Positions 1,936 to 30,378 of a DNA stretch of 35,810 nt are shown here, piece by piece. The stretch spans positions 1-35,810 of the IMG/VR virus record IMGVR_UViG_2579778748_000004. One strand, given 5' to 3'. Position 1 is the stretch's first letter, and each line of letters begins with the position of its first letter. The stretch comes from a virus. Its lineage: Duplodnaviria; Heunggongvirae; Uroviricota; Caudoviricetes. The notes beneath the pieces are model-generated. The model searched no databases. It was not told the origin of the DNA and saw only the letters and a list, made by a program, of their open reading frames with translations. The position numbers were made by a program, and so were the translations under genes.

Positions 1936-3099
1936 TCACTCATTATCTTCTGTTTCGTACTCCACATCAGAAAGCCTGACCTCAAGCTCTAAGGATGTCG
2001 TGAAGCCGCTATTATTCAGAAAGTGTGTCACCTTAGTGATTGTCCAGTCCTGCTCGTCTATGACGCGCTTAAAGCCAGACACTTTGACCGGTGTTTCCGT
2101 GTAAATATCTGCCCGACCGGTAGCCAGGCTGATGGAGAACTCCGCGACGCCCCGTTGCAGTTTGTCCCACTTCGCCTGAGCGGCGCGCATGGCCTGCGCT
2201 TTCGTGGCATATACCGTGGTCAGGGCAAAAACGTTGTCAGCCTCACCTGCCATGTATTCACCTTCGCGCGCTTCCGGTACTTTTGACGCTTTCTTCTGCG
2301 TGACTGGTTTCGCTTTCGGGTGCTCCAGTGCGCGCAGGTGTTTCTCTTTCTTTTTGCGTTTCAGTTTTACCTTCTGCTTTTGTGGCTTCGGGTCTTTGGT
2401 GTGTAACCACTTTGCCGTTACGCCGGTATAGGCTCCACGGTCAGCAATCGCAAAATGATGGCGGTCGCCGTCGCTGCGGGTGATGGTAATCTGAGGGATT
2501 TTTTTACCGCTGGCCGTCACCCCCTGCCCCGCTTTGAGAAACAGCAGTTTTCCCATTTTTACCGACACCTCGCCGCCGTTGCGTTCAGCAAGACGGGTCA
2601 GGAATTTCACATCGGACTCCTGCGACTGGTCGATGTGCGGGATTTTAATTCCGGCCAGTGACGGAGCGACACTGGCTTCCAGCCTGTTACGGGTGGCTAT
2701 CGCCTCAACAATCGCACCGAGCGTGGTGTCATGCCAGGAGCCTTCCCGGCGGGAATTGAGCGTCCCGCGAAAATCTGCACTCCGGGCGCGGATGGTGACC
2801 ACATCCGGCGCGCCCCGGTGTTCAACCTCATCAACGGTAAATTTCCCTTTGCATACCAGGGCAAAACCTTTCCAGCCGATATACACCGTCAGGACAGCGC
2901 CACGAACCGGCAGTCCGACCTGCCCGTCGGCATCGTTCAGTTCAATATCAAGCTGGTCAGCCTCAAAGCCCCGGTTATCCGTCAGGGTCATGCTCATCAG
3001 ACGGTCGCTGATATTGCCGGTAATATCCCTGCTGTCGAGCATCAGCATGTAATCCGGCGTCAGCGTACTGCCTGCATCAAATGTCAGCGCATCCAGCAT
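1936..3099 (-). CDS. D: Tail protein D (late control gene D family)
   Basis: 387 aa, same length as P2 gpD; position between ogr and U; basic K/R-rich linker in the C-terminal half. Confidence 0.85.
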   Translation of the reverse strand: MLDALTFDAGSTLTPDYMLMLDSRDITGNISDRLMSMTLTDNRGFEADQLDIELNDADGQVGLPVRGAVLTVYIGWKGFALVCKGKFTVDEVEHRGAPDVVTIRARSADFRGTLNSRREGSWHDTTLGAIVEAIATRNRLEASVAPSLAGIKIPHIDQSQESDVKFLTRLAERNGGEVSVKMGKLLFLKAGQGVTASGKKIPQITITRSDGDRHHFAIADRGAYTGVTAKWLHTKDPKPQKQKVKLKRKKKEKHLRALEHPKAKPVTQKKASKVPEAREGEYMAGEADNVFALTTVYATKAQAMRAAQAKWDKLQRGVAEFSISLATGRADIYTETPVKVSGFKRVIDEQDWTITKVTHFLNNSGFTTSLELEVRLSDVEYETEDNE

Positions 3100-21913: not shown

Positions 21914-23686
21914 ATGACCATCACCACAGACACCACTCTTTTACACGACCCGCGTCGTCAGGCGGCGCTGCTGTACTGGCAGGGGTTTTCCGTGCCGCAG
22001 ATTGCCGCCATGTTGCAGATGAAACGCCCGACGGTGCAGAGCTGGAAACAGCGCGACGGCTGGGACAGCGTTGCTCCCATCAGCCGTGTCGAAATGAGTC
22101 TGGAAGCGCGGCTGACCCAGCTCATCATCAAACCGCAGAAAACCGGCGGTGACTTCAAGGAAATTGACCTGCTCGGACGCCAGATTGAACGACTGGCGCG
22201 GGTCAACCGTTACAGCCAGACCGGCAACGAGGCAGACCTTAATCCGAACGTTGCTAACCGCAACAAAGGCGGGCGTCGCAAACCGAAAAAGAATTTTTTC
22301 AGTGACGAGGCCATCGAAAAGCTGGAGCAGATTTTCTTTGAGCAGTCTTTCGAATATCAGTTGCACTGGTATCGCGCAGGGCTTGAGCACCGCATCCGCG
22401 ATATCCTGAAATCCCGCCAGATTGGCGCGACGTTTTATTTTTCCCGCGAGGCGCTGCTGCGCGCCCTGAAAACCGGTCATAACCAGATTTTTCTGTCGGC
22501 CAGTAAAACGCAGGCGTATGTGTTCCGCGAATACATCATCGCCTTTGCCCGGCTGGTTGACGTTGACCTGACCGGTGACCCAATTGTCCTGGGCAATAAC
22601 GGCGCAAAACTGATTTTTCTCGGCACCAACTCCAACACCGCACAGAGCCATAACGGCGACCTGTACGTCGACGAGATTTTCTGGATCCCGAATTTTCAGG
22701 TACTGCGTAAGGTGGCATCAGGTATGGCCTCACAGAGTCACCTGCGCTCGACCTATTTCTCCACCCCGTCCACGCTGGCGCACGACGCCTACCCGTTCTG
22801 GTCGGGTGAACTGTTCAACCGGGGACGCGCCAGCGCCGCCGAACGTGTGGAAATCGACGTCAGTCATAACGCCCTTGCCGGTGGTCTTCTCTGTGCGGAC
22901 GGCCAGTGGCGGCAGATTGTCACCATTGAGGACGCCCTGAAAGGCGGCTGCACATTGTTCGACATTGAGCAGCTCAAACGCGAAAACAGCGCCGACGATT
23001 TTAAAAACCTGTTCATGTGTGAATTTGTTGACGACAAGGCATCGGTGTTCCCGTTTGAGGAGCTGCAACGCTGCATGGTCGACACGCTGGAAGAATGGGA
23101 AGACTATGCGCCGTTTGCCGCCAATCCGTTCGGCTCACGTCCGGTATGGATTGGTTACGACCCGTCACACCGTGGCGACAGCGCCGGATGCGTGGTACTG
23201 GCACCGCCAGTGGTGGCCGGTGGCAAATTCAGAATACTTGAGCGTCACCAGTGGAAAGGCATGGACTTTGCCACTCAGGCGGAATCCATCCGCAAACTCA
23301 CCGAAAAATACAACGTCGAATACATCGGTATTGATGCCACCGGCCTCGGTGTCGGCGTGTTCCAGCTCGTGCGCTCGTTCTATCCCGCCGCGCGCGACAT
23401 CCGCTACACGCCGGAAATGAAAACCGCAATGGTGCTCAAGGCAAAAGACGTCATCCGCCGTGGCTGTCTGGAATATGACGTCAGCGCCACCGACATCACC
23501 AGCTCGTTTATGGCTATCCGCAAGACCATAACCAGCAGCGGACGCAGCGCCACCTATGAGGCCAGCCGCAGCGAGGAAGCCAGCCACGCCGACCTCGCCT
23601 GGGCAACCATGCACGCCCTGTTAAATGAGCCACTCACCGCCGGTATCAGCACCCCGCTGACATCCACCATTCTGGAGTTTTACTGA
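21914..23686 (+). CDS. P: Terminase large (ATPase) subunit P
   Basis: 590-aa product from the ATG at 21914 (MTITTDTTLLHDPRRQAALLYWQGFSVPQIAAML…) with a ribosome-binding site; the ORF-track start at 21884 is a TTG extension; divergent from O as in P2. Confidence 0.85.
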   Translation: MTITTDTTLLHDPRRQAALLYWQGFSVPQIAAMLQMKRPTVQSWKQRDGWDSVAPISRVEMSLEARLTQLIIKPQKTGGDFKEIDLLGRQIERLARVNRYSQTGNEADLNPNVANRNKGGRRKPKKNFFSDEAIEKLEQIFFEQSFEYQLHWYRAGLEHRIRDILKSRQIGATFYFSREALLRALKTGHNQIFLSASKTQAYVFREYIIAFARLVDVDLTGDPIVLGNNGAKLIFLGTNSNTAQSHNGDLYVDEIFWIPNFQVLRKVASGMASQSHLRSTYFSTPSTLAHDAYPFWSGELFNRGRASAAERVEIDVSHNALAGGLLCADGQWRQIVTIEDALKGGCTLFDIEQLKRENSADDFKNLFMCEFVDDKASVFPFEELQRCMVDTLEEWEDYAPFAANPFGSRPVWIGYDPSHRGDSAGCVVLAPPVVAGGKFRILERHQWKGMDFATQAESIRKLTEKYNVEYIGIDATGLGVGVFQLVRSFYPAARDIRYTPEMKTAMVLKAKDVIRRGCLEYDVSATDITSSFMAIRKTITSSGRSATYEASRSEEASHADLAWATMHALLNEPLTAGISTPLTSTILEFY

Positions 23687-24720
23687 TGAGCAAGAAAAAA
23701 GGGAAAACACCGCAACCTGCGGCAAAAACAATGACCGCCAGCGCCCCGAAAATGGAGGCATTCACCTTTGGTGAGCCGGTGCCGGTACTCGACCGCCGTG
23801 ACATTCTGGATTACGTCGAGTGCATCAGTAACGGCAGATGGTATGAGCCACCGGTCAGCTTTACCGGTCTGGCAAAAAGCCTGCGTGCTGCCGTGCATCA
23901 CAGCTCACCGATTTACGTCAAACGTAATATTCTGGCCTCGACATTTATCCCGCATCCGTGGCTTTCCCAGCAGGATTTCAGCCGCTTTGTGCTGGATTTT
24001 CTGGTGTTCGGTAATGCGTTTCTGGAAAAGCGTTACAGCACCACCGGTAAGGTCATCAGGCTGGAAACCTCACCGGCAAAATATACCCGCCGTGGTGTGG
24101 AAGAGGATGTTTACTGGTGGGTGCCGTCCTTCAACGAGCCGACAGCCTTCGCGCCCGGCTCCGTGTTTCACCTGCTGGAGCCGGATATTAATCAGGAGCT
24201 GTACGGCCTGCCGGAATATCTCAGCGCCCTTAATTCTGCCTGGCTGAATGAGTCGGCCACGCTGTTCCGCCGCAAGTATTACGAAAACGGCGCTCATGCC
24301 GGATATATCATGTACGTCACCGATGCCGTGCAGGATCGCAACGATATCGAAATGCTTCGCGAAAACATGGTCAAGTCGAAAGGCCGCAACAACTTTAAAA
24401 ATCTGTTTCTCTATGCCCCGCAGGGGAAAGCCGACGGCATTAAAATTATCCCGCTCAGTGAAGTGGCAACGAAGGACGATTTTTTTAATATCAAAAAAGC
24501 CAGCGCCGCTGACCTGCTGGACGCGCACCGCATCCCCTTTCAGTTGATGGGCGGCAAGCCGGAGAACGTCGGGTCGCTGGGTGATATTGAGAAAGTGGCA
24601 AAGGTCTTTGTCCGCAATGAGCTTATCCCTCTACAGGACAGGATCCGCGAGATAAACGGCTGGCTCGGTCAGGAGGTCATCCGCTTTAAAAACTACTCAC
24701 TGGACACTGACAACGGCTGA
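23686..24720 (+). CDS. Q: Portal protein Q
   Basis: 344 aa; start overlaps the P stop (TGATGA); P2 synteny. Confidence 0.9.
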   Translation: MSKKKGKTPQPAAKTMTASAPKMEAFTFGEPVPVLDRRDILDYVECISNGRWYEPPVSFTGLAKSLRAAVHHSSPIYVKRNILASTFIPHPWLSQQDFSRFVLDFLVFGNAFLEKRYSTTGKVIRLETSPAKYTRRGVEEDVYWWVPSFNEPTAFAPGSVFHLLEPDINQELYGLPEYLSALNSAWLNESATLFRRKYYENGAHAGYIMYVTDAVQDRNDIEMLRENMVKSKGRNNFKNLFLYAPQGKADGIKIIPLSEVATKDDFFNIKKASAADLLDAHRIPFQLMGGKPENVGSLGDIEKVAKVFVRNELIPLQDRIREINGWLGQEVIRFKNYSLDTDNG

Positions 24721-25096: not shown

Positions 25097-25231
25097 GGCC
25101 AATTTTTAAAGTTGTCACTGGCCGCGCAATGCACCAATCTCACTGTTGACGCACATGTTGACAACAATTAGCAGAACAATCGTGTCCACACATTTTTACA
25201 AACGACACCTAACAGATTGATACAGATCATT

Positions 25232-25426
25232 TTATTTGTTCATTCGAATATAATTCAATAGCATCTTGATGACCTGAGCGAGTTCTACGCTAGTTGCCTG
25301 CGCAACCAGCTTATCGGTATATATGTCAACTTCGCGTGAACTAAGATCATTGTTTTGTGCCAGAGTGGTAATCTGCCTCGTCCAGCGTTTAACCCACTCA
25401 TTATCAAAAGAAATGGAATTTTGCAT
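25232..25426 (-). CDS. Hypothetical small protein (64 aa), divergent from the cargo genes; may be spurious
   Basis: AT-rich ORF whose ATG shares the palindrome CATG with the start of the opposite-strand 145-aa ORF; no convincing ribosome-binding site. Confidence 0.25.
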   Translation of the reverse strand: MQNSISFDNEWVKRWTRQITTLAQNNDLSSREVDIYTDKLVAQATSVELAQVIKMLLNYIRMNK

Positions 25427-25862
25427 GTCGAAAAATCTCGATTTATTTAACCAACAAACGGCGGAAATCTTTGCAGTACTATGGGAAAATTTTCCCGTAC
25501 CACAGGTGATTAACTACGACAAATTTAACGCCGCGCTACCTGATGACTACTTTGACCAACTTAACTCACCAGAAATGAAAGCGTTAAATCAGTTGCGTAG
25601 TGTGGTTGAAGGTACATTCAATTTTCTCTGTGAAAACGGGTACATTCAGTACAACACAGACCATCAGTCGTATTTTTACGATGTTCGACTTACTGAAAAA
25701 GCGCTCACAGTTCTTAACAAAAAACCCGAGGTGCTTGGTGGAAATGAAACGATGGGGGATAAAGTGATCAGTGCGGTGAAAGATGGGACTCCTGGGGTCA
25801 TTGCCGGTGTGATTACAAATCTGCTGACTCACGGCGTTAATCTGGTTGCGTCAGTGTCATAG
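25425..25862 (+). CDS. Hypothetical protein (about 145 aa), first gene of the old/tin-position cargo
   Basis: ORF-track frame 25323..25862; likely starts at the ATG at 25425 (MSKNLDLFNQQ…) or 25413; AT-rich; soluble-looking; no motif I can assign. Confidence 0.6.
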   Translation: MSKNLDLFNQQTAEIFAVLWENFPVPQVINYDKFNAALPDDYFDQLNSPEMKALNQLRSVVEGTFNFLCENGYIQYNTDHQSYFYDVRLTEKALTVLNKKPEVLGGNETMGDKVISAVKDGTPGVIAGVITNLLTHGVNLVASVS

Positions 25863-26024: not shown

Positions 26025-27116
26025 ATGGGTTACGAAATTGATTTTCTAGCTGTTGGCGAAAAAAAAAGCGGCGATGCGATCTGCATCAGATGGGGAAACC
26101 TACATGGTTCAAGAGATGAACAAAAAGTTGTCGTTATTGATGCAGGATATGCCAGCACCGGAGAACAAGTCATTGAGCATATTGAAAAATACTACCGCAC
26201 AAAAACTATTGACTTGCTTATCTCCACACACCCCGATGGTGACCACGTCGGTGGACTTACATCTGTTCTAGAAAATGCAGAAGTAAAAGAGTTTTGGATT
26301 CATAAGCCTTGGGAACATAATCAAGGTCTCGCAAGTGAGTTTGCAGATGGCAGGATAACTGATGCCAGTATTGCAAATCGAATGAAAGAAAACTTACAAA
26401 AAGCTTATGACGCTGTCAAATTAGCGGAAAAAAAAGGAATTGAAATAAAAGAGCCTTTTCAAGGAATGACCTGGGATAATGCTACTCTGGTTGTTATCGG
26501 GCCAACCCAATCTTACTATGAGACTCTAATACCTGATTTCGCAAGAATGCCCAAAAAAGCTGAGGATACAGCTGGATTTGAAGTACTAAAAGCAGTCTTT
26601 GAGTCTGTAGTTGAAAAAACGAAGAAATTTATTGATTACGTTGCTGAATGGTTTACTGATGAAGGTATTGATAATGAAGATACCACCTCGGCACAAAATA
26701 ACTCAAGTGTCATTTTGAAACTTGAGATTGATGGAAGAACGTTAGTGTTCACTGGCGATGCTGGTATAACAGCCTTAGATCAAGCCTCCCAATACATTAA
26801 TAAAGAATCATTAAGATTCATTCAAGTACCTCATCATGGTAGCCGGAGAAATGTAGGCCCTGATGTTCTCGATAAACTTGTTGGTAACATTGTAAATGAA
26901 GGCGAAAAAAGGGAGATAACCGCATTTGTATCATGTGCCCCAGGTTCAGATAAACATCCCCATCAAGCTGTAATTAATGCCTTTACTCGACGAGGAGCGA
27001 AAGTTATCGCCACCGAGGGGCTTGGTAAGTACCATTTTTATAATGCTCCTGAAAGGGCAGGATGGAAAACAGCCACTCCACGATCATACATTAGTAACTA
27101 TAGAACCGAAGAATAA
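26025..27116 (+). CDS. Metallo-beta-lactamase-fold protein, ComEC/Rec2-like, putative nuclease
   Basis: 363 aa with AAGGA ribosome-binding site; motif series VVVIDAGY, THPDGDHVGG (H-x-D-x-D-H), VFTGDAG and VPHHGSR fits the metallo-beta-lactamase fold of the ComEC type as I recall it; AT-rich. Confidence 0.7.
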   Translation: MGYEIDFLAVGEKKSGDAICIRWGNLHGSRDEQKVVVIDAGYASTGEQVIEHIEKYYRTKTIDLLISTHPDGDHVGGLTSVLENAEVKEFWIHKPWEHNQGLASEFADGRITDASIANRMKENLQKAYDAVKLAEKKGIEIKEPFQGMTWDNATLVVIGPTQSYYETLIPDFARMPKKAEDTAGFEVLKAVFESVVEKTKKFIDYVAEWFTDEGIDNEDTTSAQNNSSVILKLEIDGRTLVFTGDAGITALDQASQYINKESLRFIQVPHHGSRRNVGPDVLDKLVGNIVNEGEKREITAFVSCAPGSDKHPHQAVINAFTRRGAKVIATEGLGKYHFYNAPERAGWKTATPRSYISNYRTEE

Positions 27117-27129
27117 TTCAAAAGCTGCC

Positions 27130-27750
27130 TTACGGCAGCTTATTATTAACAGCATTTACTCTATATATTATGTATCTTATTTGTTTAATATATGAGACAA
27201 CAAACAAAATAGCAAAAACCGCCAACGTTATTTTAGATAAGCCATATGTCTCGCCAGTAAACCGTCCTACAACGCACAATGTCGCCAAAAGAATAATTGA
27301 CATTGAAAATATCGTCCTATACATATTCGCAATCTCTTGCAAAGTTTCAATTTTTCCATCCACACCACATGCTGACACATAATCTTTATAAGGAGCAAAC
27401 TTAATCAAACGCGATAGTTTTAAAAAAGGTTCCAATACGATAGAACCAATCCGGCCAATGACTAAGCCAACAAAATAATAGAGGACAACATTTTTTATTA
27501 AATCATCGCCAGATAAAACGATATTCGTCATTCTCTCAAGAAGATAAATAAAAAGAGCACCTGGAAAAAGATTATTAAATATATTATATGACGATATTTT
27601 TTCCCATAAACCATCCATACCAATCACCTTACTACAGTTTAAATCAGAGATCATTTTCATTGAAAAATACATATATAGCAAGAAATCTATAGCGATTCTG
27701 ACATCCAACCTGAGTCTATCAGTAGTTAATCTCTTCAGAAAAGAGTGCAT
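27130..27750 (-). CDS. Hypothetical multi-pass membrane protein (about 206 aa)
   Basis: ORF 27130..27762, with ATG at 27750; four to five hydrophobic helices; very AT-rich; convergent with the MBL-fold gene, stops 13 bp apart. Confidence 0.6.
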   Translation of the reverse strand: MHSFLKRLTTDRLRLDVRIAIDFLLYMYFSMKMISDLNCSKVIGMDGLWEKISSYNIFNNLFPGALFIYLLERMTNIVLSGDDLIKNVVLYYFVGLVIGRIGSIVLEPFLKLSRLIKFAPYKDYVSACGVDGKIETLQEIANMYRTIFSMSIILLATLCVVGRFTGETYGLSKITLAVFAILFVVSYIKQIRYIIYRVNAVNNKLP

Positions 27751-27904
27751 AACGAAAACCAATCACAGGAAATCGGCTATGTAAATTTTCGACCGTCGTA
27801 TATCAATGGTACACCACGCCCCCCACGCTTACATTACTTCTGTGTGATGCCATACTGAGCGAGGTCTATATAAATACTAGTAATTTATCACAAACCTGAT
27901 TTGA

Positions 27905-28049
27905 TCAGCCTCGCGATGGCACAAATGCAAGCGGTTTTAACGGACTTCCGTTTCTTTGCTGACGATTTGGTATTCTCAGACCGTGTTTTAATGCACCTCT
28001 GAGCGCCCTCACGACCGCCGGATCATTCCATTCGATTACCCGTCATCAA
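27905..28049. repeat. Degenerate direct repeat of the A 3' region, copy 1 (spans the A stop codon)
   Basis: About 120 bp at 27931..28049 is roughly 92% identical to 28263..28382 inside A; weaker similarity extends about 25 bp further upstream. Confidence 0.75.
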
Positions 28050-30378
28050 ATTGATTCCACTCTGTTATAGTTGAATATCCCGGCCACTCATCAGCGACCG
28101 GATACGTGAATTTTTTCCCGTCATAATTTACGGTTGCCCCACGCGCCAGCGACTCAAGCTCCCATCGCTGAGGTCTGATACCGTTCTGAGCAAGATCAAC
28201 GCGAATACGGGTAATTTGCAATCGCTCCGACCTGGTCAGCCTGGCTGATGGCGCTATTTCATGCGGTTTTAACGGACTTCCGTTTCTTTGCTGACGATTT
28301 GGTGTTCTCAGTCCGCATTTTAATGCACCTCTGAGCGCCCTCACAACCTCCGGGTCACTCCATTCGATAACACCGTCATCAACCAGATTAAGCACTGCTG
28401 CGGCGTGTTCAGAAGGTGTGGGAGCCGGTAACGAAGTATCACCACCGGTGAGCTTTCCACAGTTATTGACAGGACTCCGAGGCGCGGCGATGCCGCTTTT
28501 TAAAGTCAAAGGCTCAACGACCGGAACTTTCGGCACAATGCGCCAGTCCGTCGTTCTGGTGATATGAATATGACGCGCGCCGAGATGCGGCGCGTAAATG
28601 CCGACCACTCTCCCGACTTCTTCCTCGTACTCGTTAACGTCATCCGACGGGCTACGGGCGACTCTGACAGTCTGGCAATCACGCGGAACATTTGCCCCAC
28701 CCTGCGCGCTGATATACAACGCAAAATCACCACTGTCTGCGGCGGCACGTGCAGCCTCAACTCGTTCGTCAAACTCATCAGCAATGCTGACGCCGCGAGG
28801 CAATTTGCGTAGTTCACGGTAAGCCCCCATTGTCGGCAGGCCAACCGTTTTAAATTGCGGGATGCGCCACGTTGACGCCCATGCGGTAACAGCCGCAGCA
28901 GTATCTTTCAGCGGCCTGCCGGTATCGTTATCGAGCTGACCATCCAGTGCATAGCCATCGATGTTTTTTGAGATGTATTTCGCGATATACCCCGCAGCAC
29001 CGCCCCGGTTAAGATGTTTTGCCTGAAAACGGTTTCGCGCGGCTCCTCTTTCGTCGCCATCCTCTTTGAGCGCATAGCGACGCATGATTTCGATAATCTG
29101 GTTACGCTGGCGTGGATTACAAAAAAGCATCATATGCCAGTGCGGCGTTCCGTCGTGGTGTGGCTCGACGACTCGCAAACCGTAGACCTGTAAATCATTA
29201 TCCTTGAATGCCGTGCGCATCAGGCTCCAGATACGGCAGAGATAACGCTGCGCATCCTTTGGATTAAATGCCTCATCGTTCCAGCCGTGATTAAGCTGAA
29301 CGGTTTTACTTTCGCCTTTTCTGACCTGACGAGTCGGGTGATACTTTGACGGCGCGGTCAGCGTGATAAACATCCCCACATCACCCTCTGCGGCGGCGTA
29401 ACGCTCAATACCGGCAATGGTGTTCATCAGCTCCATCCGGCGAATTTCAGGATTAGAAATACTGCCCATCACCTTACTGATAAGGTCGATGCGCTCGCCG
29501 GTTTCCCTGTTTTCAAGGTCACACGATTTAAGAAATTCCAGATTTGCCTGGCGGCGCGCACGCACATCACGAATGGCGTGTTTACTGGCATAAGGAGAAC
29601 GGTCTTTATTGACCTCCCCGACAGCTATCAGTAACGCTTCATGCCAGCGCATACGCTGGCCTTTAAGCTGATGAGTCCACCACTCATCGTTAAACAGACG
29701 GGCAATGGCAGAATATGCCTGCCTCGTGGTCATCTGCCCTTTACGGTATTTTTTCCAGTAGAGAGGGGAAATATTGAAAGCACGTGCAGCGCCAGCAACA
29801 TGACCATAGAGGTGAGCCTGCGCCTCATCCGTAAACAGCGATTCTTTTTCGCCATGCGCATCCACCCAGGCATCGCTGAGTTCCTCATACATCATGAAAA
29901 GCTGCGATGAGATACGGGCAGCAAACTTTTTCAGCTCCTTGTCATTCATTCCCGGCAGGCGCGCATAGTGGTCACGCTCTGCCAGAAACAGTAACGACGC
30001 GTCGGTGTTCATTTCATGGCGCTGATTCACACGCTCAATGCGCGGCCATAAACGACGCTGAAAAGTGGATGTGAGGAAATAAAACCCGTGTACCGGGCTT
30101 TTATTGCGCCGGATGTAGTCATAGCGTGAAGTAAACAGCGAGCGCAAAAAGTAAGGCAGGCGGTTAATCGTGGATAAAACACCTTGCACCTGACGCATCT
30201 CGTCACGTGTAAGGGGTCTTTCGCGCCCGACGGCCTCGCGTGGCGCGTTCCATGCATAAGCACCGGTAAACGCCTTACCGGTGCCTGCAGCAAATGCTGA
30301 AGGAGGGACAAAACGCCCGGAGGCTTTAACGGCCATATGAGCCAAAAGCCTCTGAACAACGCCTGCTGAGTTGCTCAA
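28036..30378 (-). CDS. A: Replication initiation protein A (rolling-circle HUH endonuclease)
   Basis: 780 aa; HUH-type motif …TPHWHMMLF… and tyrosine pair …YIAKYISKNIDGY…; P2 synteny. Confidence 0.9.
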   Translation of the reverse strand: MSNSAGVVQRLLAHMAVKASGRFVPPSAFAAGTGKAFTGAYAWNAPREAVGRERPLTRDEMRQVQGVLSTINRLPYFLRSLFTSRYDYIRRNKSPVHGFYFLTSTFQRRLWPRIERVNQRHEMNTDASLLFLAERDHYARLPGMNDKELKKFAARISSQLFMMYEELSDAWVDAHGEKESLFTDEAQAHLYGHVAGAARAFNISPLYWKKYRKGQMTTRQAYSAIARLFNDEWWTHQLKGQRMRWHEALLIAVGEVNKDRSPYASKHAIRDVRARRQANLEFLKSCDLENRETGERIDLISKVMGSISNPEIRRMELMNTIAGIERYAAAEGDVGMFITLTAPSKYHPTRQVRKGESKTVQLNHGWNDEAFNPKDAQRYLCRIWSLMRTAFKDNDLQVYGLRVVEPHHDGTPHWHMMLFCNPRQRNQIIEIMRRYALKEDGDERGAARNRFQAKHLNRGGAAGYIAKYISKNIDGYALDGQLDNDTGRPLKDTAAAVTAWASTWRIPQFKTVGLPTMGAYRELRKLPRGVSIADEFDERVEAARAAADSGDFALYISAQGGANVPRDCQTVRVARSPSDDVNEYEEEVGRVVGIYAPHLGARHIHITRTTDWRIVPKVPVVEPLTLKSGIAAPRSPVNNCGKLTGGDTSLPAPTPSEHAAAVLNLVDDGVIEWSDPEVVRALRGALKCGLRTPNRQQRNGSPLKPHEIAPSARLTRSERLQITRIRVDLAQNGIRPQRWELESLARGATVNYDGKKFTYPVADEWPGYSTITEWNQFDDG
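28237..28382. repeat. Degenerate direct repeat of the A 3' region, copy 2 (inside the A coding sequence)
   Basis: Pairs with 27905..28049; within A it encodes ...VDDGVIEWSDPEVVRALRGALKCGLRTPNRQQRNGSPLKPHE. Confidence 0.75.

Follow-up and report, generated by a model that had tools for sequence, protein, structure and literature searches.

The direct repeat at the 3′ end of the replication endonuclease gene A of this P2-like prophage is probably the visible part of a non-functional gpA pseudogene (pseudo-A), which belongs to the adjacent cargo module and would have been left by an illegitimate join and then decayed. The hotspot is a known one, and the scar that recombination has left there is specific to this lineage and shows no sign of function. 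All positions refer to the window, i.e. the whole 35 810 nt stretch of IMG/VR record IMGVR_UViG_2579778748_000004.

A repeat search of the window returned two direct copies of 125 nt (27915–28039 and 28247–28371) with 89% identity and a spacing of 332 nt, followed by a 17 nt extension at an offset of 333 nt (28040–28056 and 28373–28389). MAFFT and BLAST agreed on this repeat (E = 2e-49 within the window); the window holds no further copy, and both copies lie on the A side. The first-pass annotation had correctly recognized two direct copies ∼330 bp apart (offset 332/333 nt), although the identity that it gave (92%) is lowered here to 88–89%, and the duplication that it described as 120–145 bp long can be followed as recognizable A homology to ∼27749–27735, that is, over ∼320 nt. 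Its observation that the distal copy spans the A stop codon in a shifted frame was confirmed: the TAA at 28038–28036 is located inside the distal copy, which is read in the shifted frame because of the same 1 nt deletion (GGTGTT to GG-GTA) that produces the stop. The chance that the repeat is an assembly artefact or a random similarity is negligible. Nothing speaks for it but the general possibility that attends any short repeat, and the similarity within the window has an E-value of ∼1e-49. Moreover, the same junction 30-mer and the same structure are found in 23 independently assembled complete Escherichia coli chromosomes, which come from different laboratories and platforms, and in six independent contigs (four from IMG/VR and two metagenomic), so that the artefact raised as an objection in the annotation can be ruled out.

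The gene that carries the proximal copy (28036–30336, minus strand) encodes a gpA of 766 aa (MAVKASGRF...TITEWNQFDDG-stop; Pfam Phage_GPA PF05840, E = 1e-122) with 96% identity to P2 A, and PGAP annotates it in identical genomes as a 2301 nt 'replication endonuclease'. In its proximal, functional copy (28241–28389, minus strand; A nt 1948–2096), the well-preserved block encodes NLVDDGVIEW...NGSPLKPHEIAPS (the peptide NLVDDGVIEW...NGSPLKP) and is followed by the remaining functional 3′ end of A (28057–28240, minus strand; A nt 2097–2280). At a novel junction (28055/28056), the very 3′ end of A (…ACAGAGTGGAAT) abuts a sequence from inside A that corresponds to A nt ∼1948, with microhomology of ∼3–4 nt at most (AAT[C]). 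The last five codons and the stop of gpA (QFDDG-stop, 28053–28036) are therefore sequence derived from the distal copy, and the protein ends in EWNQFDDG-stop instead of EWT-stop (766 versus 761 aa). The suggestion that the repeat might represent a lineage-specific extension of the A C-terminus thus holds for five residues gained before the stop and for nothing beyond that trivial gain.

In the distal copy, all of the last ∼111 gpA codons are represented as a pseudogene, which stretches from 28056 to ∼27735 and consists of two unequally preserved parts. Part 1 (27905–28056, minus strand) is a well-preserved copy of A nt 1948–2100 that shares 88% identity with the proximal copy and has a similar GC content (0.49 versus 0.50). 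It carries 1 nt deletions at 28039/28040 and ∼27921, and its own frame reads VIEWNDPAVVRALRGALKHGLRIPNRQQRNGSPLKPLAFVPSRG up to a TGA at 27907–27905. Bases private to part 1, i.e. absent from all 67 functional alleles, make up 7.9% of it (3% in the core), and its conservation in the 23 genomes is 99.4–100%. Part 2 (27735–27904, minus strand) is a decayed copy of A nt ∼2101–2280, whose functional equivalent is the A 3′ end at 28057–28240. It keeps a single frame throughout, with four in-frame internal nonsense codons (27890–88, 27887–85, 27836–34 and 27779–77), a 6 nt deletion that preserves the frame and, at 27737–27735, a final stop roughly where the A gene of phage P24E6b stops. Its translation (ARLIKSGL, two stops, ITSIYIDLAQYGITQK, stop, CKRGGRGVPLIYDGRKFT, stop, PISCDWFSLCTLF, stop) visibly resembles the ARLTRSERLQITRIRVDLAQNGIRPQRWELESLARGATVNYDGKKFTYPVADEW of A at the protein level. 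Part 2 shows ∼60% identity to A, 28.8% private bases, GC-to-AT changes of 27:12 and a GC content of 0.40 versus 0.54; the drift towards AT is confined to this part. Taken alone, it scores 27 against 9.0 ± 1.3 (maximum 15) in 1000 dinucleotide shuffles (z = 14). No ORF of at least 40 aa was found in 27763–28035, and a protein-database search with the 47 aa pseudo-ORF gave, from two word-filter candidates, a single, uninformative match to a 69 aa fragment.

The signature of neutral decay is clear in part 2 and weak in part 1. The decay of the two parts differs ∼ten-fold (Fisher p = 2e-6), and part 1 is either younger than part 2 or has been constrained for longer. One event followed by uniform neutral decay does not account for these two tiers, so that an extra, inferred step is needed. 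The four stops have a probability of 0.19–0.27 under 30–40% neutral substitution and of 0.0004–0.006 under 3–8%. Functional divergence of the tail in a mosaic donor was rejected as the only cause of the divergence of part 2, since a sequence released recently should not hold as many as four nonsense codons. Concerted evolution between the two copies is not supported: in member L006, the proximal block has been swapped for another allele (18/149 differences) and the distal copy has not followed (1/148 in pseudo-A).

As the duplication unit of 333 nt equals 111 codons, the original junction would have been in frame, and part 1 retains an open frame of 44 codons. Both features would be expected of an in-frame tandem domain duplication that lengthened A by a functional C-terminal extension. 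However, A stops five codons past the junction in every sampled member, owing to the 1 nt deletion, and part 2 is interrupted by its four nonsense codons; such a duplication is very unlikely and could at most have been a past, transient state.

Beyond pseudo-A lies a spacer (27619–27734, minus strand) that is homologous to the 115 nt A-to-cargo spacer of P24E6b and presumably holds the cargo's own promoter; no consensus sigma-70 site was detected in it. The first cargo gene, PDC-M48A (27130–27618, minus strand; 162 aa; PADLOC PDLC04670, E = 8e-51), is annotated by PGAP as a CDS in identical genomes, and its hydrophobic product is presumed to be a membrane protein. PDC-M48B (26025–27116, plus strand; 363 aa; PADLOC PDLC04676, E = 1e-100; LmuA, E = 2e-29) encodes an LmuA-like protein of the metallo-beta-lactamase (MBL) fold (Pfam Lactamase_B). 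PDC-M48 is a candidate defence system. The segment from 28056 to 27122 is colinear with positions 2122–3066 of the P24E6b locus, which comprise the A 3′ end, spacer and cargo (66% identity over 947 nt). P24E6b-type phages and locus L108 carry the same PDC-M48 family (72% nucleotide identity; 75–79% amino acid identity of the MBL protein) in the same position and orientation behind a homologous spacer, and the A 3′ end, spacer and cargo of these phages correspond in order to the pseudo-A, spacer and cargo of the window. Unlike in the window, the cargo there lies behind one intact A without any duplication, as it does in 22 E. coli genomes with this 72%-identical allele; the last ∼25 A codons of P24E6b are divergent.

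The cargo island had been placed just beyond the distal copy. Homology to P2 and P2SIAC10, as to other P2-like phages, ends instead at 28055/28056, where the distal copy has its proximal edge. The distal copy therefore lies inside the variable region. Nearly all P2-like cargos share a cluster of breakpoints at 28079–28054, and the class at 28054–28057, which contains the junction, is the commonest (n = 30 among 97 loci). The proposal that the repeat is a recombination scar marking the hotspot boundary stands as far as the scar is concerned: in this lineage, an A fragment sits at the canonical breakpoint beside one cargo allele. As a general marker of the boundary it fails, since none of the 90 other A loci has the repeat and P2, pro147 and P2SIAC10 show no self-repeat, an outcome that the annotation itself had named as refuting; a general hotspot-boundary feature was rejected on this count. 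An att- or attC-like site at a cassette boundary was rejected too, given that both copies lie on the A side and that the 90 loci with other cargo and the same three phages lack it.

Pseudo-A was found in 23 of 5426 E. coli genomes and in the four IMG/VR and two metagenome contigs, always with the same junction and only beside the PDC-M48 allele of the window. Pseudo-A is linked to this cargo: both are invariant among these members, in which upstream A alleles are exchanged and vary by 1.6–3%. No donor of part 1 emerged from the other E. coli A alleles, the best of which reach only ∼90–95%, and searches of E. coli genomes and phage records matched part 2 only within the lineage. The A tails of the cargo relatives L104–L108, L012 and L013 are no closer to part 2 than the window's own A. 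When viral and metagenome contigs were scanned with exact 20-mers for an A that reads on into ...KPLAFVPSRG-stop, only same-junction members were returned.

The P2 replication origin (ori) lies inside A, and the first-pass annotation had left open whether it is involved. The 20-mer GCGCCTCGGAGTCCTGTCAA, which we take to be the P2 nick site, has a single exact match in the window (28466–28485, minus strand), outside both repeat copies and 77 nt upstream of the proximal one. This agrees with the position annotated in the P2 record ('nick site at ori', P2 nt 29892), which maps to ∼28478. Among 79 unique A sequences, synonymous diversity at 28494–28459 is 0.000, and the zero- or low-diversity footprints of the ori (28494–28459 and 28620–28549) end upstream of the duplicated block. 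The proximal block is the most variable segment of the A 3′ region (synonymous diversity 0.05–0.19, non-synonymous up to 0.145), which argues that no cis constraint acts on it. Apart from the location of the ori in A and the short distance from the nick site to the proximal copy, little would suggest that the repeat is part or a second copy of the rolling-circle ori, for instance as an additional site of gpA nicking or termination, or as a duplicated enhancer of the ori beside the cargo. The best nick-like sequences at the junctions or at the end of pseudo-A match only 9–11 of 20 positions (shuffle p = 0.15–0.86), and neither P2 nor the 90 other loci need a second copy to replicate. With the nick site single and external and synonymous variation in the block unsuppressed, involvement of the ori appears extremely unlikely.

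The good preservation of part 1 (private bases 3–8%, against 29% in part 2) could also mean that 27905–28056 is under selection today. It might act as a handle of homology through which the cargo recombines with A of other P2-like phages, be bound by gpA or by a host factor, exert regulation as a 3′-UTR or in antisense, or contain a small ORF. A 41 nt stretch is identical to the functional copy and includes a 6 bp inverted repeat, AACGGAAGTCCGTT, and part 1, like the rest of pseudo-A, is invariant in all 29 sampled members. The members are, however, at least 98.5% identical in the region, too closely related for this invariance to separate neutrality from selection, and the peak of synonymous and non-synonymous diversity at this block in functional A points to no constraint at the DNA or RNA level. 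Recombination by way of such a handle would remove 332 nt and leave A truncated, a product seen in no collection, and a small ORF would have to do with a frame that lacks an ATG and is immediately preceded by the A stop. No other lineage or cargo has retained the block. Pseudo-A has no Rfam match, consensus promoter or A-sense terminator, although such absence is no proof against function. On balance, selection on part 1 is improbable.

A decaying pseudogene remains the best explanation, and we infer the following history. In an ancestor, this PDC-M48 allele would have come right behind an intact A, an arrangement that P24E6b-type phages retain. The very 3′ end of a complete A may then have been joined illegitimately, across little or no microhomology, to position ∼1948 of another A, the copy in front of the cargo; the two copies could have come from two phages or from sister genomes. 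Having occurred at the usual cargo breakpoint, the join would have created a direct duplication of 333 nt (111 codons), at first in frame. A 1 nt deletion five codons past the junction would subsequently have produced a stop, restoring a near-normal A and leaving the rest untranslated, and pseudo-A would have undergone nothing but decay since then. Its present effects would be limited to the last five codons and stop of A and an A-to-cargo spacer longer by ∼300 nt. The lesser decay of part 1 could have either of two reasons. Part 1 might have stayed coding after the frameshift at ∼27921 cut off part 2, whether it then closed a truncated A or was translated as an extension of the C-terminus; this would explain why the step in decay coincides with the stop at 27907–27905. 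Alternatively, gene conversion may have overwritten it later with the sequence of a functional A allele.

The defence loci of P2 and P4 commonly contain small intergenic core-gene fragments that have become pseudogenes; these are read as remnants of intense recombination and taken as leftovers of cargo swapping; the P2 primase, as GpA is named there, is the core gene most often seen as a pseudogene (PMC13586616, NAR 2026). Like those remnants, pseudo-A is a short non-coding core-gene fragment beside an intact defence cargo in the gpA–gpQ hotspot. It differs from them in being a direct duplicate placed right after its intact parent gene, in the supply of the parent's last five codons and stop by its junction and in its sharp two-tier decay. 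At the gpA–gpQ (tin/old, 'TO') hotspot of P2, exchange has been proposed to combine recombination near cos with a homologous crossover (Rousset et al., 2022; PMC9122126). The locus and its flanks (A and Q/cos) are the same here and the cargo is likewise a candidate defence system, but that model has a homologous crossover on the A side, whereas the A-side join of the window is non-homologous and, for that reason, left a duplicate of the A 3′ end behind. Pseudo-A thus documents one non-homologous cargo insertion at a well-known hotspot, an event of minor importance alone, yet it provides a concrete, datable case in which the A-side join in cargo exchange was not a homologous crossover. It is also a clean lineage marker of one PDC-M48 allele and a warning for annotation: in this lineage, the last gpA codons derive from a scar and the 418 nt 'intergenic' gap is a pseudogene.

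The preservation step located exactly at the ∼27921 frameshift and its stop (27907–27905) leaves room for a further reading, in which the phage long replicated with gpA truncated after ...NGSPLKP or with the block as a translated extra C-terminal module. We consider this unlikely, but it would imply that the last ∼65–130 gpA residues, downstream of the encoded ori, are dispensable, and that the ori itself forms the real left boundary of the defence hotspot, the C-terminal domain of gpA being exchangeable 'cargo-side' sequence. Two observations fit this idea: in the A genes of relatives from Citrobacter, Enterobacter and Lelliottia, short unrelated tails take over 9 nt past the nick-site 20-mer, and locus L019 breaks inside the duplicated block. 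The sharp zero-diversity footprint of the ori and the replaceable gpA C-terminus behind it may be of more interest to the P2 replication field than the repeat itself.

The window carries a P2-like (Peduovirus) prophage, oriented opposite to the usual P2 map. The portal gene Q (23686–24720, plus strand) is followed by an AT-rich cargo region and then by the replication endonuclease gene A (28036–30336, minus strand; 766 aa; Pfam Phage_GPA, E = 1e-122), which is 96% identical to the P2 A gene over 2,145 nt. The gpA–gpQ locus is an established P2 defence hotspot (PMC9122126). The cargo here is the PADLOC candidate system PDC-M48, comprising the hydrophobic PDC-M48A (27130–27618, minus strand, 162 aa; E = 8e-51) and the MBL-fold, LmuA-like PDC-M48B (26025–27116, plus strand, 363 aa; E = 1e-100); the PGAP names given to these genes ('ComEC/Rec2 family competence protein' and 'phosphohistidine phosphatase') look over-annotated. 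The cos-proximal end of the region (25117–25846) is 77–84% identical to P2-like phages of Klebsiella, Salmonella and Escherichia, such as ST147-VIM1phi7.1, and is therefore a semi-conserved module and not PDC-M48 cargo; two small genes at this end (25232–25426, minus strand, and 25425–25862, plus strand) have no Pfam or PADLOC match.

The first-pass annotation had reported a direct duplication of the 3' end of A, with the second copy shifted in frame past the A stop codon, and this was confirmed by a repeat search of the window, by MAFFT and by BLAST. The repeat search paired 27915–28039 with 28247–28371 (125 nt, 89% identity, spacing 332) and extended the match by 17 nt at a spacing of 333; the MAFFT alignment agreed, with one 1-nt gap. 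A BLAST comparison of the last 354 nt of A with the whole window returned only the self match and the distal copy (E = 2e-49), with nothing else above noise that could be a third copy. A itself contains the proximal copy, which codes for NLVDDGVIEW...NGSPLKP, and the distal copy (hereafter pseudo-A) starts 18 nt ahead of the A stop codon. This codon, TAA at 28038–28036, arises by a 1-nt deletion (GGTGTT to GG-GTA), which shifts what is left of the distal copy out of the A frame. An assembly artefact is ruled out by the identical junction and structure in 23 complete E. coli chromosomes and in four IMG/VR and two metagenome contigs.

The extent of the repeat, first put at 120–145 bp with ∼92% identity, was corrected to the last ∼111 codons of A, with 88–89% identity in the well-preserved part. 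In phage P24E6b, a version of this cargo that is 72% identical follows immediately on an intact A; the A 3' end, spacer and first cargo gene of this phage are colinear with window positions 28056–27122 (66% over 947 nt). The low-identity remainder (27912–27700) aligned to the corresponding part of A with a local score of 27, as against 9.0 ± 1.3 (maximum 15) in 1000 dinucleotide shuffles. Translated in a single frame, it reads ARLIKSGL-stop-stop-ITSIYIDLAQYGITQK-stop-CKRGGRGVPLIYDGRKFT-stop-PISCDWFSLCTLF-stop, where A itself reads ARLTRSERLQITRIRVDLAQNGIRPQRWELESLARGATVNYDGKKFTYPVADEW.... From this colinearity, the shuffle score and the protein-level likeness, the distal copy is a pseudogene of the entire last ∼111 codons of A, running from 28056 to ∼27735. 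Since the duplication unit is 333 nt, the original junction was in frame.

Breakpoints, defined for each locus as the position where homology to the window's A stops, were determined in 12 loci from species-representative genomes, 80 from IMG/VR, and annotated phage and E. coli loci. Alignment of the A 3' region across these P2-like loci, a check proposed in the first-pass annotation, placed the breakpoints of 84 of the 90 loci without the duplication in the last ∼45 nt of A (window 28079–28054), just past the conserved GAGTGGCCGGGATT; in effect, the last 5–12 codons of A are cargo-linked everywhere. The window junction (28055/28056) belongs to the largest breakpoint class, the one that coincides with the A/orf91 boundary of P2. 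An independent '...EWNL-stop' tail is present in E. ruysiae (L009), and if the recipient carried a tail of this type, the microhomology at the join would have been only ∼3–4 nt (AAT[C]). Such short microhomology points to a non-homologous join, made at the usual cargo boundary.

None of the 90 other A loci has an A-derived fragment downstream of A, and P2, pro147 and P2SIAC10 show no self-repeat. Related phages with other cargo thus lack the repeat, which argues against a general marker of the hotspot. Among 5,426 complete E. coli genomes, the two portions of pseudo-A (part 1, 28056–27905, and part 2, 27904–27735) were each found in the identical set of 23. PDC-M48 was present in 45 of these genomes, 23 with the window allele and 22 with the P24E6b allele (72% identical, 28% apart); all 23 genomes with the window allele carry pseudo-A, and in the 22 others the cargo begins ∼107–115 nt past an intact A. 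In the nine sampled members of the pseudo-A-carrying lineage, the part of A lying upstream of ∼28390 shows 1.6–3% difference to the window, indicating allele exchange, and no variation is seen across the proximal block, pseudo-A, the cargo and everything in between, except in one member, L006. In L006, the exchange also took in the proximal block, with 18/149 differences, and a portion of the A tail, with 5/184, yet in pseudo-A (1/148 and 1/174) and in the cargo there is essentially no change. A alleles have thus been exchanged while pseudo-A and the cargo stayed constant, so that pseudo-A is part of the cargo module; concerted evolution of the two copies is not supported by L006, in which the proximal copy changed and pseudo-A did not. 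The 'recombination scar' reading therefore holds for this lineage, where pseudo-A is disrupted, cargo-linked and located at the standard boundary, whereas the 'hotspot marker' reading is not supported. In L006 (NZ_AP027500.1, strain LR-25), the downstream crossover of the exchange lies within the 184-nt inter-copy segment (equivalent to 28057–28240), and homologous exchange of A comes to within ∼200 nt of the cargo boundary with pseudo-A undisturbed.

Involvement of the replication origin was not supported. The nick annotated at nt 29892 of the P2 record corresponds to window position ∼28478, within the 20-mer GCGCCTCGGAGTCCTGTCAA (28466–28485), which has a single occurrence in the window; it sits 77 nt upstream of the proximal copy and outside the duplication. 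A comparison of 79 distinct A sequences gave a synonymous diversity of exactly zero over 28494–28459 and very low values (0.017–0.019) over 28620–28549 (A codons ∼573–596), a pattern that a cis-acting origin would be expected to leave; the latter stretch, ∼100 nt upstream of the nick site, may be a second cis-acting element of the P2-type ori. The duplicated block is hypervariable, with the highest diversity in the 3' region of A (synonymous 0.05–0.19, non-synonymous up to 0.145), so that no constraint acts on it at the DNA level, and the two copies, at 88–89% identity, have diverged no more than alleles ordinarily do. Strand transfer by gpA (HUH) as the source of the join is likewise unsupported: the junction, its donor-side equivalent and the pseudo-A end match the nick site at only 9–11 of 20 positions (shuffle p = 0.15–0.86).

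The two parts of pseudo-A have decayed to different degrees. Part 1 matches the proximal copy at 88% identity and has kept its GC content (0.49 vs 0.50); of its bases, only 7.9% (3% in the 90-nt core) occur in none of the 67 distinct functional A alleles collected. Part 2 shows 60% identity, 28.8% such private bases (Fisher p = 2e-6 for the contrast) and a GC-to-AT drift (27:12; GC 0.40 vs 0.54). It also contains four internal nonsense codons; in simulations, the probability of four or more stops was 0.0004–0.006 at 3–8% divergence and 0.19–0.27 at 30–40%, which indicates that part 2 stopped coding long before part 1 began to diverge. The step falls at a 1-nt deletion near 27921 and the resulting stop in the pseudo-A frame (TGA, 27907–27905), the exact point where the repeat had been thought to end.

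The junction at the standard boundary is non-homologous, pseudo-A with its spacer and cargo is colinear with the A end, spacer and cargo of a related phage, and pseudo-A is disrupted and cargo-linked. We infer an ancestral state in which the window allele of PDC-M48 lay directly behind an A gene. An illegitimate join, involving two phages or sister genomes, would have connected a complete A, at its end, with position ∼1948 of the cargo-preceding A, and the 1-nt deletion at 28039/28040 would have trimmed this in-frame fusion to an A ending in ...EWNQFDDG-stop. The two-tier decay needs one further step. Part 1 may have stayed translated, as the end of a truncated A or as a C-terminal extension, after the frameshift at ∼27921 freed part 2; or a functional A allele may have overwritten it later by gene conversion. 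We give slightly more weight to prolonged translation of part 1 because it accounts for the decay step sitting at the stop codon. Searches for the donor of pseudo-A in E. coli genomes, phage records, and viral and metagenome contigs were negative.

The present-day A, which ends in ...EWNQFDDG through the 1-nt deletion, does not bear out the earlier idea that the repeat extends the protein. The pseudo-A region has no ORF of 40 aa or more, and the open frame of part 1 (44 codons) lacks an ATG and is immediately preceded by the A stop. No Rfam family was found in the region at E ≤ 1, and neither a consensus sigma-70 promoter nor an A-sense intrinsic terminator was detected between A and the cargo gene; the only hairpins, weak and on the antisense strand, lie inside both copies. 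Each copy holds a perfect 6-bp inverted repeat, AACGGAAGTCCGTT (27939–27952 and 28271–28284), within the RNGSPL codons, which was picked up as a weak terminator-like hairpin on the antisense strand. The repeat is conserved across A alleles, but selection on the protein could account for this.

A survey published in 2026 covered thousands of P2-like prophages, of which 98% had at least one pseudogene, and ∼90% of the pseudogenes were very small intergenic fragments; a share of the fragments derived from core genes, the replication protein being the most commonly pseudogenised one, and those in defence loci were interpreted as 'remnants of an intense process of recombination' (PMC13586616). Pseudo-A is one such remnant and differs only in being a direct duplicate that adjoins its intact parent, in supplying the last five codons and stop of that parent, and in having decayed in two stages.

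The C-terminus of gpA is itself variable. In relatives from Citrobacter, Enterobacter and Lelliottia, gpA changes to unrelated short tails right past ...APRSPVNNCG, 9 nt after the nick-site 20-mer. Among the collected A loci, tail-switch or break points lie at locus positions ∼4360 (L015–L018), ∼1433 (L019) and ∼4662 (L013); in L019, whose upstream part is 98% identical, the break falls at A nt 1991, within the duplicated block, and in L013 at A nt 2183. The ∼130 aa of gpA that follow the ori are thus not universal and behave as part of a variable zone, and the tail switches and the L019 break give hints of a reading, improbable on balance, in which this C-terminal domain would be dispensable and effectively within the variable region.

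More than 10 RefSeq 'complete' E. coli chromosomes start at base 1 of the gpA gene of this prophage, which occupies nt 1–2301 of NZ_CP115330.1 (locus L115) and the same coordinates in NZ_CP107114.1, NZ_CP128958.1, NZ_CP139125.1, NZ_LR890466.1 and others. In these chromosomes the DUF5405 gene, upstream of gpA, wraps over the record origin; presumably, a genome-rotation tool took the phage replication gene for the chromosomal start gene.
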